Assembly: GCA_004375895.1 (NCBI GenBank) | Contig: SOJW01000020.1 | Span: 1,170 to 65,169, forward strand | From: Candidatus Stahliibacteriota bacterium | GTDB taxonomy: Bacteria; Hydrothermota; Tepidihabitantia; B3-TA06 | Length of the DNA stretch: 64,000 nt | Direction: 5' to 3' | In this document: one piece after another, positions 26,826-50,298 of the stretch | How positions within the stretch are numbered: the stretch's first letter is position 1 | Layout of the letters: every line of letters begins with the position of its first letter | Notes under the pieces: generated by a model | What the model was told of the DNA's origin: nothing | Databases searched by the model: none | The model's input: only the letters and a program-made list of their open reading frames with translations | Position numbers and translations under genes: made by a program

Positions 26826-26832
26826 CATCCAA

Positions 26833-29963: not shown

Positions 29964-30110
29964 GTGGATACGGCTCAAAGATGTACAGTGAGAGGAGATT
30001 CATAACGAGCAAGAGGTACCTTGCGGGGGCGGCAGGGATCAAGAGAGGTGAGGTGAAGGGTAAGGATCTTAAAACCTCCTCATTTATTTGAGGAGAGCAA
30101 AGGAGGATAC

Positions 30111-31190: not shown

Positions 31191-31199
31191 TGTTCGTCC

Positions 31200-31661
31200 A
31201 TGAAGGCCAAAGACGAACGCGAACGGGTTCGGGCAGCGGCTTTGAGACTCCTGCGTTACCGGGAAAGAAGCGTCGCCGAGATGCGAGAGCGGCTGCGCCG
31301 CAAGGGATTCGATCACGAGACAATCGATGTGGAGATCGAGAATCTCAAGGAGCAAGGCTTACTTGACGATGAACGCTTCACCGGTATCTGGATCAGGCAC
31401 AAGCTTACTATCTCCCACAAGGGGAAGCGCTTGATAAGAGCCGAGCTTGCCGCAAAGGGGATCAGCTCTGAGCTCTTCGCCAAGATATGGGCAGCACATG
31501 CAGATCAGGAGCGCCGCTCCGCCTGCGAGTGGGCCAGAGCCAAAGCAGAAGGTTATTCCTCACTTGAGGGCTTCGAGCGTCGCGGACGCATCAGGCAAGG
31601 CCTTTACCGCAGGGGCTACTCGCAGGAGGCTATCCAGGAAGCCCTCAAGGAGATCGGATGA
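31200..31661 (+). CDS. recX: RecA regulator RecX
   Basis: ALRLLRYRERSVAEMRERLRRKGF; three-repeat helical pattern; follows recA. Confidence 0.85.
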   Translation: MKAKDERERVRAAALRLLRYRERSVAEMRERLRRKGFDHETIDVEIENLKEQGLLDDERFTGIWIRHKLTISHKGKRLIRAELAAKGISSELFAKIWAAHADQERRSACEWARAKAEGYSSLEGFERRGRIRQGLYRRGYSQEAIQEALKEIG

Positions 31662-34282: not shown

Positions 34283-34965
34283 ATGCTTTAATAGCACTTT
34301 TACTGATCGCCGCGGGTTTCAGTGACCCCGGCATCCCAAACGGCGAGCGGGTCGTCTACCTTGGCTATGATCAGGGAACCACCCGCGAGATAATCCACGA
34401 AATCTACGATAAAGGAGACCACTACTACTCCATCCACAAGCACATAGATACCACGAAAATAATCGTCAAGTGCTGGGTGCGTAAGAGCGATTTTTCCACC
34501 ATCCGGATGATAAAGGATCGCTCGGGCCGCTTTCAGCTTGGGGTGGAGTCTATAGAGGGGGGCATCCTGGTCTCCGACGGGTTCAAGGGCAAACAATCCA
34601 TGCTCAAGCATGAGGGTCGCTTCTACGACCGCCATACGTTGATCGAGGCGTTTCGCGCCTTCCCGTTCGATGATCCGGGGACCATCGAGTTCGGGTTCTT
34701 CGAGTCCAATGTAGGCACGGTCATCACAGGCGCCTGCGTATACGGAGGGATACACACAATCCAGACCGAAATCGGTGATTTCCGGTGTCACAAGCTGACC
34801 CTGGGGTTCAAGAGCTTTATTGTGAAGACCCTCTACAAGGTGGTGCTGGCCGGGCGCAGCTTTGATTTCTACTACGAGGTTGATGCACCTCACCGCATGA
34901 TCTACTGGACCGACAACAAGGATGGCTACATGAAGCTTATACGCATAGAAAACGAGGGCGAATGA
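34279..34965 (+). CDS. Hypothetical secreted protein
   Basis: Signal-like MNALIALLLIAAGFS; 4-nt overlaps with alaS and scpB; antisense ORF 34300..34893 discounted. Confidence 0.55.
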   Translation: MNALIALLLIAAGFSDPGIPNGERVVYLGYDQGTTREIIHEIYDKGDHYYSIHKHIDTTKIIVKCWVRKSDFSTIRMIKDRSGRFQLGVESIEGGILVSDGFKGKQSMLKHEGRFYDRHTLIEAFRAFPFDDPGTIEFGFFESNVGTVITGACVYGGIHTIQTEIGDFRCHKLTLGFKSFIVKTLYKVVLAGRSFDFYYEVDAPHRMIYWTDNKDGYMKLIRIENEGE

Positions 34966-35666
34966 GCGAGCCCTGGCAGATTATTGAGGCGCTGCTTTTT
35001 GCCTCGCCCGAGAGTGTCAGCAGCAGGCGCTTGGCGAATGCTACCAACCTTGCTCCTTCCGAGGTAGAAGCCTGCATCCAAAAGCTCAACAGGGATTACG
35101 AAGGGCATGGCCGGTCGTTTCAAATCCGTAAGCTGGCTGGCGGCTGGCAGATGGTTACCCTTCCGCGCTTTGCCCCGTGGATTGCCCGGCTCTTGCAGCG
35201 TAAGGGCCGCGGCCGCCTGTCCACGGCTGCTTTGGAGACCCTGGCTGTGATCGCCCATCGCCAGCCGATAAACAAGCCCGATATCGATCAGGCAAGGGGG
35301 ATCGAGTCATCCTATATCCTTTCCTCCCTTCTTGAACGCGGTATTATACGCATCAAGGGACGGGACAAGCGGGCAGGGCATCCCTACGTGTACGTCACCA
35401 CCTCCAAGTTTTTGGAGTTCTTCGGCCTGGCATCGCTTGAGGAGCTGCCCGATCTTGAGGAACCCTCGGTAAAGGAAGCCGACATCCTGCCCATTGAGGA
35501 GGGGGATGAGACTGGGCAAGCAGAAGAACATCGGGAAGAATCGGCGGGGGAAGAGGTGAATCAAGATGCTCTGGCCGCCATAGGTTACCGCATCGAGAAG
35601 GCTAAGAGTAAGCAGAAGTCAAAACGGAAAGAGGCATCCCATGGAGAGTCCAATGAAACCCCTTGA
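34962..35666 (+). CDS. scpB: Segregation and condensation protein B
   Basis: IIEALLFASPESVS..., two winged-helix repeats, LETLAVIAHRQPI. Confidence 0.85.
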   Translation: MSEPWQIIEALLFASPESVSSRRLANATNLAPSEVEACIQKLNRDYEGHGRSFQIRKLAGGWQMVTLPRFAPWIARLLQRKGRGRLSTAALETLAVIAHRQPINKPDIDQARGIESSYILSSLLERGIIRIKGRDKRAGHPYVYVTTSKFLEFFGLASLEELPDLEEPSVKEADILPIEEGDETGQAEEHREESAGEEVNQDALAAIGYRIEKAKSKQKSKRKEASHGESNETP

Positions 35667-36183
35667 TCCCCAAAGGCCTCAGGCTCTTTTGATATGCGGG
35701 CTGCTTTCTGCCGACAGCCGGTTGATGAAGGAGATAGAAACGACACTAGTAGAGCACTTTGGACCCGTGGGTCTGCGGAGCGAGATCGTTCCCTTCACCT
35801 GGACCGATTACTACAACGCGGAGATGGGGGAGAAGATTCTACGGCGCTGGCTTGTCTTCTCTAGTCCGGTAAACCTTTTGGAATCCTGGCGGTTCAAGCT
35901 TGCCAGTTGCGAAGTCGAGAATGACCTACGTAGGGAGGGTAAGCGCAGAATAAACATAGACCCCGGATTCATCCGACTGGAGGGCCTGTGGCTTTTAACC
36001 ACCAAGGCGGCCGGGCACCGCGCATACCTTGATGAAGGGATATGGATCGAGCTTACCTTAAGGTTTCTGCGCGAGCACTGCGAGGAGTTGCCCTGGACAT
36101 ATCCTGACCACCGTGATCCAGTAGCACAGGCATTCTTCTTAAAGGCAAGAGAGCTTTTGAAGAAAGAGCTGCGCGATGTTTGA
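35641..36183 (+). CDS. DUF4416-like protein
   Basis: FTWTDYYNAEMG...INIDPGFI pattern as recalled for DUF4416. Confidence 0.5.
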   Translation: MESPMKPLDPQRPQALLICGLLSADSRLMKEIETTLVEHFGPVGLRSEIVPFTWTDYYNAEMGEKILRRWLVFSSPVNLLESWRFKLASCEVENDLRREGKRRINIDPGFIRLEGLWLLTTKAAGHRAYLDEGIWIELTLRFLREHCEELPWTYPDHRDPVAQAFFLKARELLKKELRDV

Positions 36184-36541
36184 GGCCCAGGTTAGGGTTC
36201 CCTTAAGTTTCAGTCACCGCCTGGAAGGGTTCGGGAGCGAGTCCCAGAAGGTTCACGAACATACCTGGGATGTTGCTGTTACCCTTGCCACCGCTGCGTT
36301 GGATCAAAGGGGCGCAAGCGTAGATTTCGTTGGGTTAAAGAAAGACCTTGCCGAACTGCTTGAGCCGTATCAGGGTAAGCTTCTTAACGACTGCGAGGCC
36401 TTTCACGAACTGCAGCCTACAGCTGAACATATCGCGATCTGGGTGGCCGGGAATCTGGCCAAGACTTACCCGGGTCTTATCCGCGCGGTAACCGTCGGTA
36501 CAGGAGAAGAATGGGCTCGGTTTATTTTAGAGGGTTCCTGA
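36176..36541 (+). CDS. 6-pyruvoyl-tetrahydropterin synthase/QueD-family protein
   Basis: SFSHRLEG...HEHTWDVAV...VDFVGLKKDL...LLND...PTAEHIAIWV. Confidence 0.65.
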   Translation: MFEAQVRVPLSFSHRLEGFGSESQKVHEHTWDVAVTLATAALDQRGASVDFVGLKKDLAELLEPYQGKLLNDCEAFHELQPTAEHIAIWVAGNLAKTYPGLIRAVTVGTGEEWARFILEGS

Positions 36542-36686: not shown

Positions 36687-38183
36687 TTAATTTGCGCTCC
36701 TTATTGTGAAGGTCAAGGCATTACCTTCGTGCTCCATACCTATCAGCAAGGCCTTCATCTCAAACGCGTCTAAAAACGGAAAGAGCTTTTCCTCAACGTT
36801 CGCCGGGGTAAAGCCTGCGGTGCGGTCGGCGGCGTAGATCAGGTACTCCTTTAAGGCTTCCCTGAACAGCGGCCAGTTGAGGCAGGCAACGGGTTCGGTT
36901 ATTCCTGCCGCTTCAAGATAGCCTGCGAACTCCTCCGAGCCGTCAAGGGTTAGACCGGCAGAGTACGCGTCAAGCAACCAGGGGACAAGCGCTGAGTCCG
37001 AGGTAACGGTAAGGTAGGAGTTATTAAAAAGATAGGTTATCGGCGGCAGATCCTCGCCCAGATCGAGCATGGTGTAGGCAACCTCGCCGTGAGTCAGGGT
37101 GGTGTCCCAGGCTGCGGGGAAGAACCAGGGTGCGAGTGCAGTCCAGCTCTCGAACGAACGCTCCGAGCCTGCCTCCACAGAAACCAGCCAGCGAGCCGGG
37201 GCATACCATCTATCTACATCCCAGCCCTGCATGATAAACATGGCTTCGTCCTTAAGGTCGACAGCTATCCGGGCAAACTCCTTTTCTATATCGAGATTAC
37301 CCAGAACCTCTAGCGCTCCCTCCTCTGCAGAAAGCTTGCCTGCTTCCTTCCAGACCCTGTAGGGATTGACACCGGCAAGGCTTATGAAGAGCGCGGCGTC
37401 TGCAGGTATCTTTGAGTAATCTTCAGGAGGCTTTGCATTGGCGATGAGGCCGCCCAGGACGCCTGAGGGTTTATCCATCTGGATTATTGCTTCGATTCCG
37501 TTCTCGCCTTCCTGGATAATCCATCTTGCTTCATCGAAGATCAAGTATTTACCGTGCTTACGCAAGAGCCCGTAGGCCAGCGGCTCAATGCCTCTACCGA
37601 TTGGGAAGGCTTTCTCTTCCTTCAGGTCTTCGGAGGAGGCGATCGCAAGACCCTTAAGCAGAAGCTTTTCCGAGGAGGCATACCAGAAGTAGTCTCCGGC
37701 AAAGAATGCCGCGGTGCCGCCCGTGAAAACTGTGTAGGGGATGCCTTGTGAGGACTTCTCATCGCCTTTAGCGATAATACTGCGCCACATCGCCTTTACC
37801 TTCCAGCTAGGCTGGGTGATGAGAAGGAAGCGCTTCTCGCCGTAGCTTGCGTAGATGAAGCGTGCACCAAGAACGTCCCAGAATCTGCCCTTGGTCTGTT
37901 CCTGAACCTTACTCACTTTCTCAAGGTTTGAGAAGTCTTTGTCTATCTCGTGCTTGCGGGCCAGGTGTCCTATTTTCGATGACTTGTAGAGTTTGCCGGC
38001 AGCTGTAAGATCGGCAGTCATATAGCTTTCCGCGCCCTTGGGAAGGAGCTCTTCCAGCACACCTACCTCGCGTTCTAGACCCGGGGTATCGGTCATCACC
38101 GCATAGGCGATCCCAGCTCCTATCACAAGCACTCCCAGACCTATCCCCACACCGATTAGAATTCTTTTAAGCTTTTTATTCAT
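36687..38183 (-). CDS. Membrane-anchored hypothetical protein (last gene of the A2M operon)
   Basis: N-terminal TM KRILIGVGIGLGVLVIGAGIAYAV; 4-nt overlap with the upstream gene. Confidence 0.6.
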   Translation of the reverse strand: MNKKLKRILIGVGIGLGVLVIGAGIAYAVMTDTPGLEREVGVLEELLPKGAESYMTADLTAAGKLYKSSKIGHLARKHEIDKDFSNLEKVSKVQEQTKGRFWDVLGARFIYASYGEKRFLLITQPSWKVKAMWRSIIAKGDEKSSQGIPYTVFTGGTAAFFAGDYFWYASSEKLLLKGLAIASSEDLKEEKAFPIGRGIEPLAYGLLRKHGKYLIFDEARWIIQEGENGIEAIIQMDKPSGVLGGLIANAKPPEDYSKIPADAALFISLAGVNPYRVWKEAGKLSAEEGALEVLGNLDIEKEFARIAVDLKDEAMFIMQGWDVDRWYAPARWLVSVEAGSERSFESWTALAPWFFPAAWDTTLTHGEVAYTMLDLGEDLPPITYLFNNSYLTVTSDSALVPWLLDAYSAGLTLDGSEEFAGYLEAAGITEPVACLNWPLFREALKEYLIYAADRTAGFTPANVEEKLFPFLDAFEMKALLIGMEHEGNALTFTIRSAN

Positions 38184-38818
38184 AAGGCCTCCTCTTTGAT
38201 TAGTCGGACTAAACTGTCTAGTCCCATTCCATCTATTTTTTCCTGAGTCAACCGAGCTGCTGCCAGATAGCCGAGCTTTAAGTCCAACGTATCCTTGCTT
38301 TTAAGCAATGTCTCAATCCTTTCTTTCTCTTTAGGCAAATCTTTCAAACTTACATCCTCTGCTAGCCTCCTCGCCTGCCCGGAACATATCACCGCCAGCC
38401 CCTCGTTGAGCCATAAAGGGACCTCATATGGCTCAAGCACAAGGTGCACGTACTCGTGAACCACTACCTCCTCAAGCACCCCGCGACGTTCAAGAACAGC
38501 CAGGGGCTGAACGATGAGCTCCCCGTTTCTTACCGCCGCACCATGCCAGATAGAACATCCGGTCCAGGCAGCAAAATCCCCACTCGAAGGCGCCACCCGT
38601 AACACACCACCCCGTAACACCCGTAACACACCATTCTCCCACCCTACCCCCATCGAATGATCTTCAAAGTAATCATCAACTACCCTTTCTGAGGTTCTCA
38701 GAACCTCCACCCACCTAGAAATCTCCTGTCGGTTAACTTCTTCCCCCGATGTAATGATTACCCATCTATCCATGGGCACCACCGCGCTCCAGAGAATCGC
38801 CAAGAAAAGCCTTACCAT
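38180..38818 (-). CDS. Peptidase-MA-like metalloprotein (HExxH...NEGLA)
   Basis: VVVHEYVHLVLEP...WLNEGLAV; carries an in-frame GTGTTACGG-element insert (GWENGVLRVLRGGVLRVAPSSG). Confidence 0.6.
   Translation of the reverse strand: MVRLFLAILWSAVVPMDRWVIITSGEEVNRQEISRWVEVLRTSERVVDDYFEDHSMGVGWENGVLRVLRGGVLRVAPSSGDFAAWTGCSIWHGAAVRNGELIVQPLAVLERRGVLEEVVVHEYVHLVLEPYEVPLWLNEGLAVICSGQARRLAEDVSLKDLPKEKERIETLLKSKDTLDLKLGYLAAARLTQEKIDGMGLDSLVRLIKEEAL
38575..38640 (-). repeat. GTGTTACGG element copy 2, inside a coding sequence
   Basis: Minus strand gagaatggtgtgttacgggtgttacggggtggtgtgttacgggtggcgccttcgagtgggg. Confidence 0.8.
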
Positions 38819-39834
38819 CTCTTCACCTCAGTTCCTGGATAGTAGTGCGCCAGTATCTCTTTGAAACCCGCGCCATCATCTGCCATGCCTGCCGCTCCCC
38901 ACTGGGAAAACCCGACCCCGTGTCCAAGACCGTGTCCTGTGAATATAAAGCCCTCCCCATCCTTGTGCACCTCGAACCACGAACTTTTAAGAGTCCCCCA
39001 GCCCAACTTTCGGGTCATAATCATCCTGAACTGCCAGCCAAGATAGATCACTGACTCCGAACCTCTAATCCTTATCTCTATCACCCGATTGTCAGGGGCA
39101 GACTCAACGACCTCTATATCAGATACGTGGGTGATATCCAAGGCCTGCGCGATCTGGGATGAGGTGAGCGTGTATCGCCACGAGTAGTGAGGGGAGGCTG
39201 AGCAATAGTGGTCCGGAACCGAGCGAAGATACGGTGCATACTCATCAGGCCAGATCGAGCGAGCGTCTGCGGTGCGTCCGCCAGAGGTCGAGTGGTAATA
39301 TATCTTGCAAGGCTCCCCGTGATAGGTTAAAAACATCCCTTCTGTCTCGGCTACCGCCTTCCCGGTTGCGGCGGTTACCGTTTCCAGCCCTCTATATGAC
39401 TGGCAGTGGGTGAGGTCGCATAAGTCCCAAGGCTCGTCTTGATGCCTGCAGCCGGTGTAGATGAACGTCCGGCAGAGCACGACCTGGGCCTTGAGTGCCT
39501 CAAGCTCAGCCCCCGGAACCATCTCAGCACCTACCACAGATGCAAGGTAGGCATCTTCTTCTACTTTATTAACCAGAATCAGCTCGCCGTCCTCTGCCCA
39601 AACCTCAAGAGATCCTTCATAACTGCGAGACTTATCCTTCCATTCGATGCTGAAGCCTTCGGATGGTGATCTGTAACGCTCACTGGACTTTTCGTTTACG
39701 TATAAATTGCTTCTCCTAGCTTTGAGTATATCCTTATGCCCGTCAACGATGACTGCTGCTTCCTCTAGATGGTGTGAGGAAAGAATGTTGACATTCACTC
39801 CGACGATCATCATGATTAACTTAATGCTCAGCAT
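38812..39834 (-). CDS. SpoIID/LytB-domain protein
   Basis: YYHSTSGGRTADARSIW...PYLRSV...GHGLGHGVGFSQWGA. Confidence 0.85.
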   Translation of the reverse strand: MLSIKLIMMIVGVNVNILSSHHLEEAAVIVDGHKDILKARRSNLYVNEKSSERYRSPSEGFSIEWKDKSRSYEGSLEVWAEDGELILVNKVEEDAYLASVVGAEMVPGAELEALKAQVVLCRTFIYTGCRHQDEPWDLCDLTHCQSYRGLETVTAATGKAVAETEGMFLTYHGEPCKIYYHSTSGGRTADARSIWPDEYAPYLRSVPDHYCSASPHYSWRYTLTSSQIAQALDITHVSDIEVVESAPDNRVIEIRIRGSESVIYLGWQFRMIMTRKLGWGTLKSSWFEVHKDGEGFIFTGHGLGHGVGFSQWGAAGMADDGAGFKEILAHYYPGTEVKRW

Positions 39835-40729
39835 AGACCCCTCTGAAGTAGTCTGAAAATACTATGCCTGCGATGCGGGCCGCGTCCTTGCCCTCGCCTC
39901 TATCCAGGAAAACAACCACCGCGATCTCGGGCGCCTCGTATGATGCGAATCCTACGAACCAGCCGTGTGTGACCCAGTTGCCGAGCACGGTTGATGAGCC
40001 TGTCTTGCCTGCGACCTGCACCGTTGTTATATCGGCATGTTTACCGGTTCCGCTTCGCACCACGTCTCGCAGGAGCGGTCTTATTTTAGCCAGAGCCTTT
40101 TGATTGGGGAAGGAGGAGAGCACTTCTGGCTGTCCCTCAGAAAGCCTTGGTCTCAGCAGTTCCCCTTGGGTTGCTATGCCTGAGATCAGCGCAAGCATCG
40201 CCACCGGGGTGAGCTGAATCGAGTAACCCTGACCGATAGCGAATGCAAGCTTTGCTGAGTCGGATGAGGGAGTCTCGACGATGCTCTCCGCCTCTCCGGG
40301 CAGATCAACGCCGACTCGTCCATCTAGCTTGAGTCTTCTAGGTAATGCGGCCAGGTCCTCCGCCGATAAATCTTTTGCCAGGCTCTGGAAGTAGAGGTTG
40401 CATGATTGTGAAAGAGCCCTTGAGAAGTCCACAATACCGTGTCCTCCTCGTAGCGAGCAGCGCAATGTCTCGTCCCCTGGACAGTAGAAGCCGTCTGGAA
40501 GCTCTATTCCCTTTTCTATGGCCACGAGTCCGGTGAGGAGCTTGGCGACCGATCCTGGCGGGTAACGCTTGGCAAAGAGGGTCTCCGGATCGGTCGCCGC
40601 AAGAAGTCTACCTGTCGCAAGATCCATCACCGCCACAGCGCCTCTCGAGCCTATCAATTCGGCACAGCGCTCGGCGAACGCACCCTCGGGTAACGCAGCC
40701 GCGAGGGCCAGGATGATAAGTCCGCTCAC
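39821..40729 (-). CDS. Transpeptidase-domain-only penicillin-binding protein
   Basis: SxxK (PGSVAK), SxN (SQSCN), KTG (GKTGSS); 302 aa with no glycosyltransferase domain. Confidence 0.8.
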   Translation of the reverse strand: MSGLIILALAAALPEGAFAERCAELIGSRGAVAVMDLATGRLLAATDPETLFAKRYPPGSVAKLLTGLVAIEKGIELPDGFYCPGDETLRCSLRGGHGIVDFSRALSQSCNLYFQSLAKDLSAEDLAALPRRLKLDGRVGVDLPGEAESIVETPSSDSAKLAFAIGQGYSIQLTPVAMLALISGIATQGELLRPRLSEGQPEVLSSFPNQKALAKIRPLLRDVVRSGTGKHADITTVQVAGKTGSSTVLGNWVTHGWFVGFASYEAPEIAVVVFLDRGEGKDAARIAGIVFSDYFRGVYAEH

Positions 40730-43700
40730 TCCTCGATCACGGTGATTACGGCTTCTGATGAGTGGCCGCGTTTATCCGGGAAGTACATGAGCGATACCAC
40801 TGCGGGCATGGTGTGGTAAACCCCGGGTAGGTAGGGTTCGATGACGTAGGATAGCTCTCGCCTGCCTCCCCACAGTCGGCTTATGAAGAGTGCGGTGTGG
40901 TCGTCGTGGATCTCGCGCCCGGAGTACATGTAGCCCCAGCTCTCATAGTCGTAGTAGCCGCGCCAGTATCGCTCGCCCGAGATGGGGTAGCGCGAGTTGT
41001 CCTTTACCACCTCAAAGCCGGCAGGGATCGGGTCCTGAATCATCACGTACTCGAAGTTCTCCGTGCAGTCCACAAAGAGCTTCACGAATAAAGGCTCTCC
41101 TACCTTGACCGGTCCGGAGAGCCTCTTCTTGTCGTAGACCAGTCTGTCTTTCTCCACGCGCGGGATCAACCGGTAGTACTCGCGGGTGATCTTCAGGTCG
41201 GTTCCGCCTGCCGTGATACCCTCCTCCTTGCTGTAGTATGAAAAGACCAGGCTCGTGAACAGGTTCCCGGAGCCCTTCTTGTGTATCTTGAGTGAGTTTT
41301 CCCCGTGCACCACACCTGATAGTTCGAGATCCAGTGGACGGTTGAACTGTAAGATCTCGTACTGCGAGATCTTGTAGCTTGCGATCCTGCGGTTGTTGAG
41401 CAGGAACTCGATCTCCATCCGAGGGCTGGTGTCCTTGGTGGTTTTGAAGAACTCGGCTAAAGCCAGGAGTGCCAGGGCGGAATCTTTCGAGGATTTCCAG
41501 TGGTTACCACGCCGCTCGCGCAGGAGCCAGTATATGATCTTGGGGATCATCCCCTCGCTGGGGTAGATGGCAAGAAATGCCCGCAGGGTCGTAGCTGTAA
41601 TCTCAACCGGGTCATCCTGCCAGCGCGCAAAAATGTGAACCCTGCCGCTCCAGTATACCATCTCCTCGTCTGCTATCGCCTCTTGCTTGAGACGCTCAAG
41701 CGTCTGGCGCGCCTTGGGGTCCTCACCGATCTCGTGGTAGGAAAGCGCCATAAACGCCTGCGAGTAGGGGTCGAGTTGGGTCTTCTCAAGAGCTAGAAGC
41801 TGGGCTTTTATGAACTCTTTGTCCTGGTCGGGTGCCATGGAGAGAGCGTAGAGCATGTAGGCGCGGTCGGTGGTGGCGACGTCTTTATCCTTGCGCAGCA
41901 TCCTGTTGATGGCTTCCAAGCCTCTTCTTATCACGGTTGGGTTCACATCGTAACCAAGCTGGGTGGCATACAGTAGCCCGTGCATCACGTAGGTGGTGTT
42001 GAAGTGCATGGTCTCGTCGTGCTCGAACCATCCCCAGCCGCCGTCTGAGTGCTGGTAGCCGTAGAGCTTGGCAAGGCCCTTGGCTATCATCTTTGGCAGC
42101 TCGGCGGCAAGCTGCGGGTCTCCGCGCTTGGGATCCCGGATGAGGTCGGCGACCACAAGATCCGGGAAGAAGCACGACATGGTCTGCTCCACGCATCCGT
42201 ATGGATATTTCGCAAGGTAGGAGAGCCCTGCAAAGAGTGCTGAGCTCAGTGTAGGGGTAAGTGTCAGCTTGCCAGTGATGGTTCGCAGCTCTGCCTCCTC
42301 GGGTATACTGAAGGTGCGGGCGATGCCTTGGTCAGGCTTGGGCATGAACGCCGAGATCACGAGGTTGCGCTCTATCCCGTGAGGGTTGGCCGGGATGGTA
42401 AGCTGCATGGCGTCCGAGGCATCGGTTCCTATGGCCTTGGCAATAAGGGTTACGTCGCCCGGGGCCTCGCACCGCACCGGCCAGTCCACACGGAAGGTTG
42501 AGCCTGGCTGGATGGTGTCAGTATGGGTGGTGTTGTCGAAAAGTTTTAACCCTTTGACCGAGAAGGAGAGCCTGACCTCCTGGGATGTGGGAGTGTAGTT
42601 GTGGACGATGGTCGGGATAACCAGGCTGTCTCGCTCGGTTACGAACCTGGGCGGCACGATGCGAACCAGAAGATCCTTGGTCACCAGGATCTTTTCTCGC
42701 GACTCGCCAACCTTGGTGTCCATGCTGATTGCGCGTGCAGTGGCTCGCCAGGTGGTCAGGTTATCTGGCCAGATTAACTCAACCTGGGCGCGGCCAGAGC
42801 CGTCTGTTCTCACAAACGCGTTCCAGTATGCCACGTCCTTGAACTTCTTGCGCACCTTCGGTTCTTCGCGTCCCTTGTAGGCGGCAAGCACCACGCTGTC
42901 CGCTGCCGCGGCAGAAAGCCTCTGATATTGCCGCTCGTAGCCGTAGAATGAGTAGTATACAGAGGAAGAGGTGGCAACCTGATCGGCACGCTCGCCGTAG
43001 AAGTAGTCCTCGATTGAGGGTGCGATCTCTGCGGCAAGCGAGTAGAGCGCCTCGTCCACCACGGCAAGAGAGATATCCGCCTTGATGGGTTTGCCCCGGA
43101 CGTCCTTGACCAGCACGTTCAACTTGGCCCGCTCGCCCGGCTCGTAGCGCTGTCTCTCAGGGACAAGCTCCACCGTGAGCATCCTTGCTTTGCGGTTCAC
43201 GAGCATCTTCTCTTTGTGTTCGAAGAACTCCCCTTCGTAAATCCCGCACACCGAAAGGAACACGTTAGGCACGAACATGGAGCGAACCTTGAAGCGCAGC
43301 ATCGCGGTGTTCCCCTCAAGTTCGATTATGTCAACGTCGTACAGGTTGTCCGCCTCAAGTGATGCGATTATGCTGGCGTTCTCGTAAGGGGTTATCACCA
43401 GCGCCTCGGCCCAGTCACCCACCTCGTAGGTTTCTGCATCGAAGATGATCTGGATTCTGTCGGTTTTCCAGGTGTAGTAGCCGCCGCGCTCGGAGGAGTA
43501 GAACCAGCGTTTCTCCTCGCTTTCGTTGCCTTGCTTGTCCTTGGCCTTCGCTATAACATAGTAGGGGCCTGCTTGGCTGGGGGTGAAGGTGAAGGTGGTG
43601 AATCCTATCTTGCCTGTAGAGGTGGTTTTTCTGGCGAGGACCTTGTCCTCCTTGTCCCAGTAATGCCGGTAAACTACTATCTCGACCGTGCCGGGAACAG

Positions 43701-45330
43701 GTTTATTGAGGATATCGTGGGTGTGAATGTCGATCTCAAGCTTCTCGCCAGGCTCCACCACGTAGCGGGTGGGTTTCAGGTCAACCAGCACTGCGGAGGA
43801 GGCCACGAACGCTGAGGCCTCACCGGATTCAGCACGACGGGATTCGTCCCGGACCTGCGCCTCGAAGGTGTAGCGGTAGTTGCGGTCCTTCTTGGGTGTG
43901 ACGTAGGTGAAGGTGATGCGGCCCTGCGAGTCGGTCTTGCCGGCAAGCTCGTCCACGTAGGAGGTGCCGTACCAGTAGTAGCGATGGTGCTCGCGTCTGT
44001 ATATCTTCAGCTTGGTCTCCGCCTTGGCCACCGGAGCGCCGAAGAAGTAGTCGGCCGCCACCTCGATCTTTACCGTATCGCCCTGCACGTACTGCTCGGC
44101 GTCTAGCTCAACCTCCACCTTGTAGGAGGGCTTGCGGTACTCCTCCACCCGGAACTGAACCGAGTGGTAGGTTTCCTCAAGGGTGGCGCTTAACGTATAT
44201 CTTCCCAGACGTGATGATGAGGGCACTATCAACGAGTCCGCAAACGCACCCCAGGAGTCACTGGCGAGGGCGTGTCGGTAGATCTCGTTGCCCTCTGGAT
44301 CTGTCACCACCACCTCGACCTCATCGCCTGCAGGGGTACGGTAGGTGCCGCGGCGCATCCGCCGGACTACTCCCTTGAAGTAGACGGTCTGGTCAGGCCG
44401 GTAGATGGGTCGTTCGGTGTGCAGATAGACCTTTATTGCCCCGTCCTGACCCTCCTCATCGGAATAGTAGTAGTACTTATCCAGGAGCGCGAAGTTATCG
44501 CCGTCCTGGACCAGCACCCTTAACCTGGTGGTGTCGAAGGAGGTATGGAAGAGTCCTTTGCCGTCGGTGCGGCCGGTGGCTATCCGGTTGGTGTCCGAAA
44601 GCACCACCACCACTGCCCCTCGGCGAGGCTTGCCGTCTTTTGCGTTCACTGCGAAGACGTATACCTCCCGAGGGTCTTGCTTGGTTACCACAGACATCTC
44701 CGAGACCACCACCGGCGTGTATGCTACGCGCGTCCCGTAGTAGGCCTCAACAAGGTAGACGCCAGGCTTGGTGATCTCAAGGTCTATGGTCTCGTAATGA
44801 TAGCGACCGTAGTAGTAATAGTCGTCCTTATCCTTCTTCTTTTTCTCGAACCCAATAGACCACTCCCGAAGCACCTCATAGCCCTCAAGCCGAGGTATAC
44901 TATTCGGCCCGAGGCGTTCGGGTGTTTCGGCCTCCTTCTTCTCGAGCGGTGGAAGACCGAGATAATCCCTTAACCCTATGCGGCTTTCCTTACTCATCAT
45001 CTCGCGGGCAAGATAGCGGGTGTTGCGCTTGGTTCTATCGCCAAGGCCTTCCAGCATGTGGAAGAAGTTGACAGGCTTGGCCTTGCCCCGCACCCTGGGC
45101 GAGCGCATGTTCTTCTGAGCTTCGAAGAAATCTATCGGGTCCTCGATTGCGTACAATCGGAAGTGGATTACGTCCAAGTCTCTGGTTTCCAGTCGGATCT
45201 CTGTTTCCTCCCCGGGTGAGTATATCCGGGAGGTTGAGAGGTGAATGTAGGGGTGGGCAAAAAGCCCTCCCGTTAAGGTGGCAAGCAAAGCAAGAACTTT
45301 CACGATACCCTCCTTTCGGGGCAGTGGCAA
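40726..45330 (-). CDS. Bacterial alpha-2-macroglobulin with thioester motif
   Basis: 1534 aa; MG-domain repeats; thioester KYPYGCVEQT (codons near 42184..42198); signal peptide. Confidence 0.9.
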   Translation of the reverse strand: MPLPRKEGIVKVLALLATLTGGLFAHPYIHLSTSRIYSPGEETEIRLETRDLDVIHFRLYAIEDPIDFFEAQKNMRSPRVRGKAKPVNFFHMLEGLGDRTKRNTRYLAREMMSKESRIGLRDYLGLPPLEKKEAETPERLGPNSIPRLEGYEVLREWSIGFEKKKKDKDDYYYYGRYHYETIDLEITKPGVYLVEAYYGTRVAYTPVVVSEMSVVTKQDPREVYVFAVNAKDGKPRRGAVVVVLSDTNRIATGRTDGKGLFHTSFDTTRLRVLVQDGDNFALLDKYYYYSDEEGQDGAIKVYLHTERPIYRPDQTVYFKGVVRRMRRGTYRTPAGDEVEVVVTDPEGNEIYRHALASDSWGAFADSLIVPSSSRLGRYTLSATLEETYHSVQFRVEEYRKPSYKVEVELDAEQYVQGDTVKIEVAADYFFGAPVAKAETKLKIYRREHHRYYWYGTSYVDELAGKTDSQGRITFTYVTPKKDRNYRYTFEAQVRDESRRAESGEASAFVASSAVLVDLKPTRYVVEPGEKLEIDIHTHDILNKPVPGTVEIVVYRHYWDKEDKVLARKTTSTGKIGFTTFTFTPSQAGPYYVIAKAKDKQGNESEEKRWFYSSERGGYYTWKTDRIQIIFDAETYEVGDWAEALVITPYENASIIASLEADNLYDVDIIELEGNTAMLRFKVRSMFVPNVFLSVCGIYEGEFFEHKEKMLVNRKARMLTVELVPERQRYEPGERAKLNVLVKDVRGKPIKADISLAVVDEALYSLAAEIAPSIEDYFYGERADQVATSSSVYYSFYGYERQYQRLSAAAADSVVLAAYKGREEPKVRKKFKDVAYWNAFVRTDGSGRAQVELIWPDNLTTWRATARAISMDTKVGESREKILVTKDLLVRIVPPRFVTERDSLVIPTIVHNYTPTSQEVRLSFSVKGLKLFDNTTHTDTIQPGSTFRVDWPVRCEAPGDVTLIAKAIGTDASDAMQLTIPANPHGIERNLVISAFMPKPDQGIARTFSIPEEAELRTITGKLTLTPTLSSALFAGLSYLAKYPYGCVEQTMSCFFPDLVVADLIRDPKRGDPQLAAELPKMIAKGLAKLYGYQHSDGGWGWFEHDETMHFNTTYVMHGLLYATQLGYDVNPTVIRRGLEAINRMLRKDKDVATTDRAYMLYALSMAPDQDKEFIKAQLLALEKTQLDPYSQAFMALSYHEIGEDPKARQTLERLKQEAIADEEMVYWSGRVHIFARWQDDPVEITATTLRAFLAIYPSEGMIPKIIYWLLRERRGNHWKSSKDSALALLALAEFFKTTKDTSPRMEIEFLLNNRRIASYKISQYEILQFNRPLDLELSGVVHGENSLKIHKKGSGNLFTSLVFSYYSKEEGITAGGTDLKITREYYRLIPRVEKDRLVYDKKRLSGPVKVGEPLFVKLFVDCTENFEYVMIQDPIPAGFEVVKDNSRYPISGERYWRGYYDYESWGYMYSGREIHDDHTALFISRLWGGRRELSYVIEPYLPGVYHTMPAVVSLMYFPDKRGHSSEAVITVIEE

Positions 45331-45426
45331 TATCTTTTCAAATTATCCAATCTTAGTTAAGACTCGGGCCTTCGGCCCTCGTCTTCTGAAGCCTCCCGGA
45401 GACTGGAGCCTCCGAGAGACGTTCAG

Positions 45427-46143
45427 TCAGTCCAGTATCTTGAACCTGTAGAACCCGGCAAAGGCTGGATTCGCCTCATCCGGCCGCCAGGTCTCCTCGT
45501 CAAGCGACATAAGCGTCTCAAACTTAACCAATCTCATCTCCCCCGGCGTCTCTTCGCCCGAAACGCCGTCCGCTCCCGGCCCTGTGTGATAAAGCACGTA
45601 TGGCTCGCCCTTAAGCTCAAAGTAGATCATCACGTGCGAGGACTTGTCTTTTGGCGTGAAGAACAACAAATCCCCTGCCAGCACACCATCGTCCAACCTT
45701 CTCGTGAGCTTTACCGTATGGTAATTCATAAGATGCGGAACGTCGGCAAAGTTGCCCAGCTTGCCCCTCTCGCGGTCCCCCGGCTCATACGGACCGTCGG
45801 CCAGGCGAAAGATCTCTGTCCCGATGTAGGGAACCTTCGGGTAGTGAAACGCCGCGATCTCCGGGATCGAGGGGTCTAAGAGCTCGCCGAACTGCGCGCG
45901 CCAATCCTCGTCATGGGACTTGAGTGCCTCCCTGTATGAATACAGAACAAGGCCTGCGCAGTCTCTAACGTCATCTTGCGGGTTAAGGTGTCTTGATAGC
46001 GCTATGGTTACAAACCATCGGCGGAAGTTGTGGCGGTCGGCTGATGTTTTGAGCTCTGCCGCGTCAGGGAAGCCGTCTCTGTCCGCATCCACGGCTTGAT
46101 GTGGGGTTGCTCCCAGGATAAAGAGAAATATCAAGGTATACAT
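45427..46143 (-). CDS. DUF1175 (YfaT-like) protein
   Basis: GAGGAGGAG SD + ATG 46143; DADRDGFPDAAEL...FRRWF...DCAGLVLYSYREAL; the longer ORF to 46329 overlaps the tRNA. Confidence 0.7.
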   Translation of the reverse strand: MYTLIFLFILGATPHQAVDADRDGFPDAAELKTSADRHNFRRWFVTIALSRHLNPQDDVRDCAGLVLYSYREALKSHDEDWRAQFGELLDPSIPEIAAFHYPKVPYIGTEIFRLADGPYEPGDRERGKLGNFADVPHLMNYHTVKLTRRLDDGVLAGDLLFFTPKDKSSHVMIYFELKGEPYVLYHTGPGADGVSGEETPGEMRLVKFETLMSLDEETWRPDEANPAFAGFYRFKILD

Positions 46144-46225
46144 TCTTTTCTCCTCCTCAATTGTTAGAATCTGTACCGTTATTTGACGCCACAAGCGACC
46201 CAAAAGGTTTGCTCTTCGGTTTGGC

Positions 46226-46254
46226 AGTATAGAGCGGTTGGGCTTTATTGTCAA
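46226..46254 (-). promoter_or_regulatory. Consensus sigma-70 promoter of the DUF1175/A2M operon
   Basis: Minus strand TTGACA-17 nt-TATACT. Confidence 0.65.
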
Positions 46255-46282
46255 GTAACTCCAGTTCACCAATAAAGGTGAA

Positions 46283-46300
46283 CCGGGCCTTGTTGCCCGG
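46283..46300 (-). terminator. Hairpin just 3' of tRNA-Thr
   Basis: CCGGGCaacaagGCCCGG followed by a T-rich run. Confidence 0.5.
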
Positions 46301-46305
46301 CTGTA

Positions 46306-46377
46306 AGCCGACGAGTGGATTCGAACCACCGGCCTACGCTTTACGAAAGCGTTGCTCTACCGCTGAGCTACGTCGGC
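46306..46377 (-). tRNA. tRNA-Thr (anticodon CGT)
   Basis: GCCGACG/CGTCGGC acceptor, GCTC/GAGC D-stem, ACGCT-TTCGTAA-AGCGT anticodon arm, GGTGG-TTCGAAT-CCACT T-arm; 72 nt, no encoded CCA. Confidence 0.9.
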
Positions 46378-46716: not shown

Positions 46717-47565
46717 ATGAATGAAATGAAAGGCAAGGTCTGCCTGGTGACAGGGGCGAACTCGGGGATTGGCAAGGAAACCGCTCTGGGATTGGCAAAG
46801 ATGGGCGCGACCGTAGTTATGGCCTGCCGCAGCAAGGAACGAGGCGAGGCAGCCAGGCTCGAGATCAAGAGGGAGAGCGGAAACACCTCGGTTGATCTGA
46901 TGCTTGCCGACCTCTCATCGCAGAGCCAGATTTACAGGCTGGCAAAGGAATTTAAGGAGCGCTATAAACGCCTGGACGTTTTGATAAACAACGCCGGGAT
47001 CGGTCTTGCCGAACGAGCCAAGAGCTCCGACGGTATCGAGATGTTCTTCGCCGTCAACCATATCGCACCTTTTTTGTTAACTCACCTGCTGCTTGAACGG
47101 CTCAAGGCCAGCGCTCCGTCCCGCATAGTCAACGTTTCCTCCTTCATGCACGCATGGGTGAATGGGTTAAATCTTAACGAACTACCAGGCAGGGAAAAAT
47201 TCTTCGGTATCCCAGCATATACCCACTCCAAGCTTGCCCTGCTCATGTTCAGCTACGAACTCGCGCGGCGGCTCGCAGGAACCGGGGTCACGGTCAACGC
47301 ACTCAATCCTGGCTTTGTGAAGACCAACGTGGGGCATCAGGTCAGGGGAGCTCTTAGGATAGTCAGGTGGGTGATTTTTAACGTCTTTCGGGCGATTACT
47401 CCCCAGGAAGGTGCGCAAACCAGCATCTATCTGGCGTCCTCACCTGAGGTGGAGGGCGTCACCGGAAAGTATTTCTCTAAGCAAAAGCTCAAAGCCTCTT
47501 ATGACCGCGAGGCCTGGCAGCGGCTATGGAAGGTAAGCGAGGAGCTGACAGGGCTGGCGTCATGA
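46717..47565 (+). CDS. Short-chain dehydrogenase/reductase (retinol-dehydrogenase-like)
   Basis: TGANSGIGKETA, NNAGI, S...YxxxK (YTHSK). Confidence 0.85.
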   Translation: MNEMKGKVCLVTGANSGIGKETALGLAKMGATVVMACRSKERGEAARLEIKRESGNTSVDLMLADLSSQSQIYRLAKEFKERYKRLDVLINNAGIGLAERAKSSDGIEMFFAVNHIAPFLLTHLLLERLKASAPSRIVNVSSFMHAWVNGLNLNELPGREKFFGIPAYTHSKLALLMFSYELARRLAGTGVTVNALNPGFVKTNVGHQVRGALRIVRWVIFNVFRAITPQEGAQTSIYLASSPEVEGVTGKYFSKQKLKASYDREAWQRLWKVSEELTGLAS

Positions 47566-47683: not shown

Positions 47684-49123
47684 TCAGCTTATGTTGAGCC
47701 CCTCCTCTATATCAGTCCATCTCAAGAGATCGAGTATGTTGAAGCGTCCGTCGTGATGCCAGGTGAGTGAAGGAGCGGTCATCTTGCCCAGAGGGCAGAT
47801 GCGATCTGCCCCTAGTTGGCCCATCTTATTCGCCAGGGATAAGAACCTTTCTTGTGGCAGAGCTGCGCCTACCGTCTGCAGGTAGCCCTTTATGGGTTCG
47901 ATCAATCCAACCACTTCTGATACGTCTTTCACCGGCTTGATGCGGATGGTTCGATTCAGACACGACGGCACGAATGCCGGATCGCTCTCGTAGATAACCG
48001 TCCAGTCCGTACCCCGTGAGCTCGCATGAAGTGCTACACCTTGGTCTTCAAACTCCCGGAACTCGTATGAGCCACGTAGCTGGTTGATATGTGCCGATTC
48101 GTCAGGCGAGATCCTCCCGCGAGGGATCTTTTGGTTAAAGGCCTCCATCTCGCTAGCCAACAGCCTCGCAAACTCCTTGGGCGTGGTCTGGCCGCCTTCT
48201 TCGGTGTAGAAGACGTGAGGGGAGAGGCAACCCTGCTGGTCAAAGACTGATGCGTCTATCGCCGCCTGTACCGCCGTCTGCCTGACGCGGTCCGCTGCCA
48301 GGTATTCGCGGCCTATGACCCCGAAGCTGAGCTTATGCCCGTAGGCGATGAAGCGGGTTCGGACAGGAACCCGCTTCCGGACTTCATTCACCGAATGTTC
48401 AGCGCCGTAGACGATCACCGCATCCGAGTAGCCAAAGGCTATCTTTTCGATCTCCTCGTCTCCGCCTTTCCAGCAAACCATAGCGACAGAGCGAGCCAGC
48501 TCAGGATCTACCTCAGCAAGCGATTGGGCGAACAGGGCGGCAAACAACGGCTCCTCAGAGGCGGATTTGCCAAGGATGGCCGACTTCATGAGCAGCGCAT
48601 AGACGATGTTTGCCACAGGCAGCCCTGGGACGTTGCCAGCAAACACGGTGGTCGTGAGGCGAGGCCCATACGCCTTGCACATTCCATCGCTATTCGGTCG
48701 CGGTCGAAACTGATCCAGAAACCGTGGATCGCCTAACTCGTCTTTAAGAAGGAGCCTCAGGTTTTCTCCATTGAACATAGAGATGATCCCATCCAGGGTT
48801 TGGGTGACCATCGGTCCCGAGTAGCCTGTGATTAGGGGCAGCAGCGCCTCGGCTTGTTGCCGCAGGGGGTAATTCCCATCGCTCCAAAGGTCCATAACCT
48901 TGTCTATGGCCTTGATAACGTCATAAACCGAGAGATGGGATAGATACCCTTCTCGCGCCTGGTTGAGGCGCGAGATGACTTCAGACAGCAAAGACGGTGT
49001 GAGCACGGGCGAATGCATCGTAACTCGATCCTTGCCTGTTCCGAACTCAAGGGTTACGAACTCTCCGATGTCAGCCTCATCAAAGCCGGGCAGGAAGAAT
49101 GCTGGAATTGATGTTTCTGTCAT
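47684..49123 (-). CDS. LuxC-family acyl-CoA (acyl-protein) reductase
   Basis: ~480 aa aldehyde-dehydrogenase-like fold with a QQGCLSPH active-site Cys region; follows the LuxE-like gene. Confidence 0.7.
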   Translation of the reverse strand: MTETSIPAFFLPGFDEADIGEFVTLEFGTGKDRVTMHSPVLTPSLLSEVISRLNQAREGYLSHLSVYDVIKAIDKVMDLWSDGNYPLRQQAEALLPLITGYSGPMVTQTLDGIISMFNGENLRLLLKDELGDPRFLDQFRPRPNSDGMCKAYGPRLTTTVFAGNVPGLPVANIVYALLMKSAILGKSASEEPLFAALFAQSLAEVDPELARSVAMVCWKGGDEEIEKIAFGYSDAVIVYGAEHSVNEVRKRVPVRTRFIAYGHKLSFGVIGREYLAADRVRQTAVQAAIDASVFDQQGCLSPHVFYTEEGGQTTPKEFARLLASEMEAFNQKIPRGRISPDESAHINQLRGSYEFREFEDQGVALHASSRGTDWTVIYESDPAFVPSCLNRTIRIKPVKDVSEVVGLIEPIKGYLQTVGAALPQERFLSLANKMGQLGADRICPLGKMTAPSLTWHHDGRFNILDLLRWTDIEEGLNIS

Positions 49124-49131
49124 CTTGCTGG

Positions 49132-50298
49132 CTACTTCATTTTTTGGGCACTGATCAGCTCGTCAATGGCAACGGAACAACCGCGGGATTCAGCGCCTGC
49201 TGCTCTGCCGACGCATTCAAAACCTCTCCCGATCTCATAGCCGAGGTCGTCGGTCTGTACAGCCTGTACCGTGTTTATATTGCCAAGGGAATAGTGGCGC
49301 AGGAGTCCGGTTTCACCTTTTGGCAATGGCTCCAGGGTATCGGGATCAACAACAAGGGTTCTTGTCCAGGCTGGATTGACCTTGTAGCGCGGTTCTTTCA
49401 AACCCTTCACAAGGTTGCGCAATACGTTATCAGGGAAGACCGCCTGGACCTCGGTCATGCCGTAGTTGTTTAACATGTACTCCGGTGGGACACCCGTAAC
49501 CTCTTGCGCCAGTTTGACGAACTCTTCTCTGGTCAATTCCCTTGATTTGCCTTTGTAGCCTGCACCATCGACGAAACGGCTGCCGGAAGGTAGGTTGAAG
49601 GAAAGGCCCTTTTCACGGCAATAGTCAAAGAAGTGGACATACGCAAATGTCGTGCCCACGATAATCACCGGCTCGCCATCATCTTCTGCCTGCTTCAACC
49701 TCGCGGCAAGGCCCTGAAAATCGAGCCCCTCAGGACCGACGAAGTATTCCAGTTCACCGATATGGTGGCCTTCTATGACTTTGCCTATCCCATATGTTGC
49801 TGTGGCAGTGGCGGGTAGTTTATCCAGAGGGGGTGCGAGCAGCAAGGCATGGAGGTTCTTCTCCCCGGAGGGGTAAAAGAACCCTTCTATGGATTCGAGA
49901 TAGGATAGATCCAGCAATCGAACGCCCATCTCATCCATATGTACCTTAGACCGCCTGGTCTGATCCCGTGTCCCACTGCTCTCGAGGATTCTCACCGCCT
50001 GTTCAGGGGGGAAGGTGCATAGATCGACTTCCTTGAAGGCATCTGTGGGAACTGCAAGAATCTCGGTCCAGGAGCGGATGTCTCCGGGCGCAACACCGCG
50101 TTTCTGGCAGTATTTCCGATAGGGCGTATTCTCATTGTATTGATACTCGAACAGACGAAGAGCCAGTTCATTGAACCTCTCATCGGTGCCTGGTTGATCA
50201 ACGCCGCCCTTTATGAAGGCGGTGATGTCTCGCTCCAGATCGCGGACAAAGTCCGAATCTATTGCATACTTGTTTGTTTTTTTTGTGGTTTTCGGCAT
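49132..50298 (-). CDS. LuxE-family acyl-protein synthetase
   Basis: FNELALRLFEYQYNENTPYRKYC, ESSGT adenylation motif, C-terminal ESRGCS. Confidence 0.7.
   Translation of the reverse strand: MPKTTKKTNKYAIDSDFVRDLERDITAFIKGGVDQPGTDERFNELALRLFEYQYNENTPYRKYCQKRGVAPGDIRSWTEILAVPTDAFKEVDLCTFPPEQAVRILESSGTRDQTRRSKVHMDEMGVRLLDLSYLESIEGFFYPSGEKNLHALLLAPPLDKLPATATATYGIGKVIEGHHIGELEYFVGPEGLDFQGLAARLKQAEDDGEPVIIVGTTFAYVHFFDYCREKGLSFNLPSGSRFVDGAGYKGKSRELTREEFVKLAQEVTGVPPEYMLNNYGMTEVQAVFPDNVLRNLVKGLKEPRYKVNPAWTRTLVVDPDTLEPLPKGETGLLRHYSLGNINTVQAVQTDDLGYEIGRGFECVGRAAGAESRGCSVAIDELISAQKMK

Follow-up and report, generated by a model that had tools for sequence, protein, structure and literature searches.

A stretch of 64,000 nucleotides from contig SOJW01000020.1 of a Candidatus Stahliibacteriota bacterium (assembly GCA_004375895.1), hereafter the window, was found to carry six co-directional open reading frames (ORFs) on the minus strand at 36687-46143. 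These genes encode, in order, a DUF1175/MagC-like protein, an alpha-2-macroglobulin (A2M) with a thioester motif, a transpeptidase-only penicillin-binding protein (PBP), a SpoIID/LytB-family lytic transglycosylase-like protein, a HExxH minimal gluzincin-type metallopeptidase and a membrane-anchored protein of 498 aa. By sequence comparison the locus belongs to a third type of A2M cluster, found in several phyla, which shares MagC with the mag operon.

The six genes and their products

The DUF1175/MagC-like gene (45427-46143; 238 aa; PF06672, 7.7e-48) is separated by 123 nt, with no terminator-like site predicted in between, from the A2M gene (40726-45303), which is followed by the genes for the transpeptidase (TP; 39821-40729; 302 aa; PF00905, 7.9e-40), the SpoIID protein (38812-39834; 340 aa; TIGR02669, 1.1e-62), the HExxH protein (38180-38818; 212 aa) and the 498-aa protein (36687-38183). 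The last five genes overlap by 4 nt (A2M/TP), 14 nt (TP/SpoIID), 7 nt (SpoIID/HExxH) and 4 nt (HExxH/498-aa), which suggests translational coupling, and an N-terminal hydrophobic segment was found on all six products. A promoter-like site (46226-46254, minus strand; TTGACA-17 nt-TATACT, 11 of 12 consensus matches) lies about 75 nt upstream of the DUF1175 ATG, and a terminator-like hairpin (46281-46302) is located between this site and a tRNA-Thr(CGT) gene (46306-46377, minus strand). The DUF1175 gene starts at the ATG at 46143, preceded by the ribosome-binding site GAGGAGG, and its product aligns with homologues at the N-terminus; the longest ORF of this gene reads into the tRNA gene, and position 46254 is the first base of the TTGACA (-35 box). 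The A2M start is most likely the GTG at 45303, behind AAGGAGG, which gives a protein of 1525 aa. An Rfam search of the leader and intergenic regions returned the tRNA only and no regulatory RNA. Judged jointly with the overall explanation developed below, we consider it rather probable that the six genes form a single operon.

An earlier note on this DNA, made from the sequence alone, had described six minus-strand ORFs here, the last five of them joined by 4-14-nt overlaps. All six exist and the overlaps are as described, with the DUF1175 start corrected from 46254 to 46143. Its domain calls (DUF1175, thioester A2M, PBP without a glycosyltransferase, SpoIID/LytB) were recovered as Pfam or NCBIfam hidden Markov model (HMM) matches, and the GCVEQ, SxxK/SxN/KTG and HExxH motifs that it listed are all present. 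The HExxH protein, which it called MA-like, gave a weak sequence match and a gluzincin fold in an AlphaFold2 (AF2) model. As an anti-phage defence system the locus was rejected, with no PADLOC match for any of the six proteins.

The DUF1175 protein has an NlpC/P60 fold (NLPC_P60 match in Pfam, 1.6e-6) and a signal peptide, and is 30% identical to E. coli YfaT (BLASTP, E 4e-26), with the Cys position conserved in DCAG (45952-45963) and the His positions in SHVM and YHTG. The A2M is annotated with MG2, MG3, A2M_BRD, A2M, TED_complement and bMG10 domains, and its Pfam matches to MG2 (83 bits), A2M (70), bMG10 (70), TED (66) and A2M_BRD (51) are all above cut-offs, so that the features of the bacterial A2M superfamily, namely MG domains, bait-region domain, TED and C-terminal bMG10, are all present. 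It has a signal peptide, and its N-terminus, MKVLALLATLTGGLFAHPY, contains no Cys and so no lipobox, whereas YfhM has LALAGC. The thioester codons for GCVEQ (42184-42198, minus strand; residues 1036-1040) line up with GCLEQ of YfhM in an alignment of 64 A2Ms, the site being aligned with YfhM and 60 further A2Ms.

The TP carries a signal peptide and the motifs SVAK (residue 60), SCN (109) and KTG (242). PF00905 matches residues 30-293 with 137 bits, and no other domain, including a glycosyltransferase, was found. The protein shares the SxxK/SxN/KTG domain of the class B PBPs (PBP2/MrdA, FtsI), without their N-terminal combination of membrane anchor and pedestal (PBP dimer) domain. Its best NCBIfam match is PBP2/MrdA TIGR03423 (1.8e-43, over model positions 302-592 only, the TP part), whereas PBP_1c TIGR02073 gave E 0.0074 and 14.9 bits (cut-off 494); the best PDB matches are MrdA (8zpc, 2e-21) and SpoVD. 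By these matches the TP is class B (PBP2/MrdA)-like and not PBP1c. Assignments as a class D beta-lactamase or a BlaR sensor were rejected, with E values of only 0.005-0.009 versus 1.8e-43 for PBP2.

The SpoIID protein scored 212 bits with TIGR02669 (cut-off 83) and 8.8e-22 with PF08486, and contains the catalytic-Glu motif VVGAEM together with CDLTHCQ, HSTSGG and GHGVG. It matches the PDB structure of SpoIID (4rwr) at 2.2e-30, with VVGAEM in register with VVASEM. The fold, the catalytic Glu and the other motifs are those of sporulation SpoIID, which is found with SpoIIP/SpoIIM. SpoIID works with a peptide-removing partner enzyme and needs peptide-stripped glycan. In contrast to that system, the window host is not a sporeformer, the score with the sporulation equivalog TIGR02870 stays below cut-off (164.2 versus 234.75 bits), and the partners, set in an A2M operon, are a gluzincin and a transpeptidase and not the SpoIIP amidase.

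In the HExxH protein, HEYVH (38444-38458) is followed downstream by the Glu of NEGLA (38393-38407), and HEYVH-x12-NEGLA is invariant in the family. The match to Peptidase_MA_2 (PF13485) is below cut-off (E 0.019; 15.2 bits versus 32.4), and this Pfam family was matched at E <=1e-3 by 6 of 37 long relatives, with a best value of 1.9e-5. The AF2 model (pLDDT 84, pTM 0.82) gave Foldseek matches (probability 1.0; highest TMq 0.62) to the catalytic domains of M9, M1 and M61 peptidases, among them the peptidase domain of clostridial collagenase (M9; 4ar1, E 2.6e-4, TMq 0.61). The modelled fold is that of a gluzincin (MA clan), and catalysis is predicted. A relationship to DUF2135 (YfaP/MagF) was rejected, with both BLASTP and hhalign negative, and the one PDB sequence match, to a designed repeat protein, was discarded as spurious.

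The 498-aa protein has a transmembrane helix at residues ~3-31, followed by a periplasmic alpha/beta body in the AF2 model (pLDDT 73), and no Pfam or NCBIfam match. Its 17 homologues in all are TA06/WOR-3-like, those with names belonging to WOR-3 and to candidate division TA06 (82% identity), and by this distribution the family is restricted to the TA06/WOR-3 lineage. The sole significant structural neighbour in Foldseek is Treponema pallidum TP0453 (3k8i; E 6e-6, TMt 0.47, over about half of the model), a membrane-associated lipoprotein that has been proposed as a membrane-inserting lipid carrier (PMC5421087). Homology to MagB/YfaA (DUF2138) was rejected at the sequence level, with nothing found by BLASTP and an hhalign E value of 0.12.

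Conservation, distribution and gene fusions

The full six-gene order was recovered at the WOR-3 loci L006-L009, of which L009 ends at the last gene, and the contigs of WOR-3 L004 and Stahlbacteria L005 end inside the A2M gene. In relatives with ~50% protein identity, the content, order and overlaps of the six genes are unchanged. The recurrence of an identical six-gene order in at least four independent WOR-3 metagenome-assembled genomes (MAGs) argues that the arrangement is not due to chance. The flank converging on the operon end (26761-36541, plus strand) reads glmM-glmS-recA-recX-alaS-(228 aa)-scpB-DUF4416-PTPS, where the last five genes in the window were confirmed by Pfam and glmM to recX were assigned by size and order alone; the gene sizes and order match those of WOR-3 MAG L003, with proteins ~50% identical. 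Because the six-gene order is conserved in relatives and the downstream flank is syntenic, the operon is, by comparative evidence, old, vertically inherited and located at a fixed chromosomal site in this lineage.

To survey the wider distribution, a DUF1175 alignment was scanned against one genome per GTDB species, which gave 405 confirmed loci, and the best 80 of these were kept. The loci were annotated with our own ORF calls and HMMs, and key calls were re-checked by single-sequence phmmer and Pfam. MagC and a GCxEQ-bearing A2M were found with TP/SpoIID/HExxH enzymes in WOR-3/Stahlbacteria, Myxococcota, Leptospirales and Acidobacteriota. The order in the Myxococcota locus L010 is MagC, A2M, DUF2135, Ser/Thr kinase, TP, SpoIID, and that in the Leptospirales locus L017 is MagC, A2M, DUF2135, TP, DUF2135, SpoIID, HExxH. 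Seven Acidobacteriota loci (L019, L020, L022, L023, L025, L035 and L036) have the three enzymes. Gammaproteobacterial mag/yfa-type loci made up 42 of the 80, with the order DUF2138, DUF1175, A2M, DUF2300, DUF2135. DUF2138 was matched neither in the window nor at any locus outside the Gammaproteobacteria, and DUF2135, which is present in L010 and L017, is absent from the window and the WOR-3 loci.

Several of these loci showed further features. The Ser/Thr kinase of L010 (16831-18339), which lies between the DUF2135 and TP genes, has a PEGA domain and hints at regulation by phosphorylation. In the Acidobacteriaceae loci L026-L034 and L041, a conserved protein of ~247 aa (~15380-16140 in each locus) accompanies MagC and the thioester A2M, and in L034 it is fused to the A2M to give 1818 aa. 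Conserved ORFs of 250-280 aa after the Acidobacteriota A2M were considered as relatives of DUF2135 or of the HExxH protein and rejected, with hhalign negative. Twelve loci without an A2M nearby (L011-L014, L018, L021, L024, L027, L030, L037, L038 and L040) encode a longer DUF1175 protein of 337-434 aa; their hosts are Armatimonadota, Chlorobiota/Kapaibacteria, Leptonemataceae, Alphaproteobacteria and other MAGs, and these genes, often preceded by ORFs of ~683 and 700-800 aa, represent a separate context for the domain.

Gene fusions link the three enzymes to one another. In Acidobacteriota, TP, SpoIID and HExxH domains are fused in that order in single proteins of 855-1016 aa, with the layout TP ~70-360, SpoIID ~420-670 and HExxH ~810-900 from single-sequence phmmer; in the fusion of L020, Pfam finds both PF00905 and PF08486. 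In L022, SpoIID and HExxH are fused and the TP is separate, and in two further contigs, including L088, TP and SpoIID are fused and HExxH is separate. A search of the HExxH profile against 1.84 billion representative proteins gave 486 members at E <=1e-3, of which 107 reach E <=1e-10; among the 37 long members, SpoIID is present in 31 and the Transpeptidase domain as well in 21. The genomic context was looked up for five members picked by search rank alone, and all three that are on long contigs sit downstream of MagC and A2M, the other two being on uninformative contigs of ~2.4 kb. The catalytic motifs are kept across phyla: SxxK/SCN/KTG in the TP, the catalytic Glu, CxxTHCQ, GGxT and GHGxG in SpoIID, and HExxH followed by xEG(L/F)A in the gluzincin. 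From their repeated fusion in other phyla, TP, SpoIID and HExxH probably form one physically associated unit.

These contexts also bear on the question of whether the three enzymes are only a housekeeping set for peptidoglycan editing in growth or division, a role that LytB/SpoIID homologues have in bacteria that do not sporulate, and one that happens to lie beside the MagC and A2M gene pair and has no defence role. Such a housekeeping role would be in keeping with the wide occurrence of SpoIID/LytB homologues in non-sporeformers, with the window SpoIID protein passing TIGR02669 and not TIGR02870, with the Acidobacteriaceae loci that keep MagC and A2M without the three enzymes, and with the recA, alaS and scpB genes in the downstream flank of the operon. 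We regard it as unlikely, however. The three enzymes adjoin MagC and A2M across at least five phyla in differing fusion states and even in inverted orientation (L022), the overlaps in the window suggest that the genes are translationally coupled, and the TP does not have the pedestal domain on which cooperation with SEDS polymerases in growth machines depends.

Relationship to the described A2M clusters

The two bacterial A2M cluster types were reportedly defined by Budd et al. in 2004. The two types rest on E. coli, Salmonella and Pseudomonas, and for A2M-PBP1c a hypothesis of trapping the protease and repairing the wall has been published (PMC5764988). The window locus resembles Type I, namely yfhM (ECAM)-pbpC and the Salmonella A2M, in having the gene for a CxEQ thioester A2M beside a gene for a PBP. 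However, YfhM, with 1653 aa, is a lipoprotein and shares 19% identity with the window A2M, its partner PBP1c is a bifunctional class A enzyme with GT51, whereas the partner in the window is a 302-aa class B-like TP domain alone, and genes for DUF1175, SpoIID and HExxH proteins are absent from the Type I cluster.

The window A2M shares 20-23% identity with mag-type A2Ms and 26-33% with those of Acidobacteriota, Myxococcota and Leptospirales, and in a quick neighbour-joining tree it groups with the DUF1175-linked A2Ms of these three groups. From these comparisons it belongs to a third clade, apart from both YfhM and the mag-type A2Ms. In the 64-A2M alignment, GCxEQ was found at the YfhM thioester position in every complete non-proteobacterial DUF1175-linked A2M sampled. 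GC[VA]EQ is also kept in seven of the 42 mag-type gammaproteobacterial loci (L045, L046, L054, L058, L061, L066 and L069), which have the canonical order of DUF2138, DUF1175, A2M, DUF2300 and DUF2135 and come from a Methylobacter, an Andreprevotia and several Pseudomonas; most other Pseudomonas mag-type loci have GGVEQ instead. Since canonical mag-type clusters can keep GCVEQ or GCAEQ, the description of Type II as thioester-less is not general, and the dichotomy between thioester and DUF1175 stems from how few kinds of organism were studied.

With the mag/yfa clusters (Type II; P. aeruginosa magABCDEF, E. coli yfaA-yfaT-yfaS-yfaQ-yfaP) the window shares a DUF1175 gene immediately upstream of the A2M gene, an A2M of similar size and without a lipobox, a SpoIID-homologous gene downstream of the A2M (YfaQ, which probably corresponds to the whole TP-SpoIID-HExxH series), a single-pass membrane protein in the operon, and products that are all exported, as judged here from their N-termini. 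It differs in that the thioester is intact, whereas it is lost in most, not all, mag-type clusters, and in that three separate genes with intact catalytic motifs take the place of one degenerate DUF2300 protein. The window also has neither DUF2135 (MagA/MagF) nor DUF2138 (MagB); its membrane protein belongs to the unrelated 498-aa family and is the last in the operon, whereas that of mag is near the start, and the low identity between the A2Ms given above is a further difference.

The earlier note had taken the locus as a combination of YfhM/PBP1c elements with the YfaS type, with DUF1175 tied to thioester-less A2Ms and SpoIID as an addition. None of the three points was supported: the A2M is distant from YfhM, falls in a separate clade and has no lipobox, and the PBP is class B-like; GCxEQ is present in DUF1175-linked A2Ms both outside the proteobacteria and in part of the mag-type loci; and YfaQ already carries a SpoIID domain above the Pfam threshold. 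From the A2M clade, the class B-like PBP and the non-exclusive thioester, the locus is therefore taken as a third type and not as the two E. coli types combined. A recent chimera, in which a YfhM/PBP1c-type pair was joined by recombination to a YfaS-type DUF1175 gene, would explain why the thioester and PBP look superficially like Type I and the DUF1175 gene like Type II, yet it is highly improbable, because the A2M groups with those of Acidobacteriota, Myxococcota and Leptospirales at only 19% identity to YfhM, the PBP has no GT51 domain, thioester A2Ms also occur in canonical mag-type clusters, and the lineage has inherited this old arrangement vertically, at a fixed chromosomal site. The link between an A2M and peptidoglycan enzymes in one envelope module, which the same note had drawn, stands on the cross-phylum conservation and the gene fusions. 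Of the refuting condition that it named, an arrangement both common and already characterised, the first half applies, as the arrangement is common across phyla; our literature search found no paper that characterises a MagC-A2M-TP-SpoIID-HExxH cluster.

To better understand the relationship between the three enzymes and MagE/YfaQ, we compared their sequences and profiles. No DUF2300 match was found by Pfam in the window cluster. The window SpoIID protein matches E. coli YfaQ at E 1e-5 in pairwise BLASTP, YfaQ matches Pfam SpoIID with 27 bits (cut-off 23), and hhalign of the standalone cluster SpoIID alignment against the YfaQ alignment (residues 255-445) gave a probability of 95.6% and E 1.2e-8, with the Glu kept. 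This SpoIID-like part of YfaQ is solid at the level of profiles, and because YfaQ carries the domain above the Pfam threshold, the window SpoIID gene can be considered the positional and sequence counterpart of MagE. There is moderate support for a TP-like part: the standalone TP alignment matches YfaQ 36-122 in hhalign (E 2.8e-5, probability 74%), with PPGSVAK opposite PLGSLWK (SxxK kept) and SCNLYF opposite SCGLYF (SCN to SCG). For a HExxH-like part, the conserved LTHEYLHLAF at the YfaQ C-terminus, whose HEYLH aligns with the window HEYVH, is suggestive.

A profile of 22 full-length fusions (residues 38-497) gave one colinear alignment with YfaQ 9-398 (probability 93%, E 3.2e-7), in which GKTGTS of the fusion is opposite GSGTS of YfaQ, and a reversed-sequence control gave E 0.67. 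Because of this colinearity, YfaQ/MagE looks like a degenerate descendant of the TP-SpoIID-HExxH fusion. A broader proposal is more tentative, and we hold it as a serious possibility short of even chances: the three enzymes may be the ancestral peptidoglycan excise-and-patch partner of DUF1175-linked A2Ms, with MagE/YfaQ as their collapsed and largely inactivated descendant. No paper linking DUF2300/MagE, or macroglobulins generally, to SpoIID was found in the literature search, and in the Mag papers MagE is a protein without known function that affects MagD processing (PMC5764988). The orphan family DUF2300/MagE, which is relevant to Pseudomonas virulence and resistance to type VI secretion system (T6SS) effectors, is thereby given a testable ancestry from a PBP transpeptidase, SpoIID and HExxH. 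If the three enzymes are ancestral, Type I and Type II would become variants of an A2M plus wall-repair enzymes, and there would be a mechanistic handle on how mag protects against peptidoglycan-targeting T6SS effectors.

The processing of MagD raises another reading, in which the HExxH gluzincin is no cell-wall enzyme but forms a cognate protease-inhibitor pair with the A2M: it would either process or activate the A2M as a dedicated protease, or be held in check by it. The main task of the operon would then be to control how the A2M matures, with the peptidoglycan enzymes there only to position the complex. In P. aeruginosa, processing reduces MagD from 165 to 100 kDa, and this processing is altered when MagE is lost (PMC5764988). 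YfaQ, the MagE equivalent, keeps the C-terminal HEYLH, and the structural neighbours of the HExxH protein are true proteases or aminopeptidases (collagenase M9, M1, M61) and not known peptidoglycan amidases. Against this, the HExxH domain is most tightly tied to SpoIID, being fused to it in 31 of 37 long members and not to the A2M, and some standalone family members, such as L085 on a contig of ~2.4 kb, were counted outside any A2M context. We consider this explanation rather improbable, and about on a par with the housekeeping one.

A putative envelope-protection complex

The explanation that we favour, and consider somewhat probable as a whole and less so for its single steps, is an exported, membrane-tethered envelope-protection complex built round the thioester A2M. 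The six products would all be exported, as their N-terminal hydrophobic segments suggest. By homology to E. coli ECAM and the Salmonella A2M, the A2M, with its bait region, TED and GCVEQ, would covalently trap endopeptidases entering the periplasm. Since the A2M has no lipid anchor and the membrane localisation of MagD depends on the single-pass MagB, which tethers and stabilises it (PMC5764988), our guess is that the single-pass 498-aa protein holds the lipobox-free A2M at the inner membrane as a functional analogue of MagB. The MagC-like protein may bind, and possibly cut, peptidoglycan, as MagC is reported to bind peptidoglycan (cited in PMC10318531). The PBP2-like TP, the SpoIID-type transglycosylase and the gluzincin would act as a cut-and-patch unit, a chemistry suggested by their motifs and by analogy to SpoIID, and together with the MagC-like protein this unit would edit or repair the wall locally. 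The gammaproteobacterial mag/yfa clusters would then be a derived form, with the three enzymes collapsed into MagE/YfaQ and, in many cases, no thioester cysteine left.

This combination of trapping and wall editing fits the published trap-and-repair idea and the finding that P. aeruginosa is protected by its mag operon from T6SS effectors that target peptidoglycan (PMC12663445). Across loci, the A2M is linked time and again to three enzymes with intact catalytic motifs for acting on peptidoglycan or peptides, in some cases fused to one another, and the 20-year-old trap-and-repair hypothesis thus gains concrete proteins with predicted, assayable activities.

Several observations weigh against this explanation or parts of it. 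The Acidobacteriaceae loci L026-L034 and L041 have MagC and a thioester A2M without the three enzymes within 10 kb, so the latter are not obligatory. The cluster has neither DUF2135 (MagA/MagF) nor DUF2138, the proteins shown to bind MagD, and the 498-aa protein has no sequence or profile likeness to MagB/DUF2138, its sole structural neighbour being a proposed lipid-binding, membrane-inserting lipoprotein. Because the pedestal domain, the usual activation route of class B PBPs, is absent, the TP may act as a carboxypeptidase or a binding module. The A2M tree is a quick neighbour-joining tree with a single YfhM sequence, and the HExxH profile matches YfaQ 502-545 weakly (E 3.5e-4, probability 37%, 42 columns). 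Every functional step proposed above is drawn from homology or analogy.

On the other side of the tRNA-Thr gene, minus-strand genes at 47684-50298 encode a LuxC-type acyl-CoA reductase (PF05893, 5.7e-97) and a LuxE-type acyl-protein synthetase (PF04443, 2.3e-21), adjoined by a divergent short-chain dehydrogenase gene (46717-47565, plus strand). Together these look like fatty aldehyde- or alcohol-forming genes.

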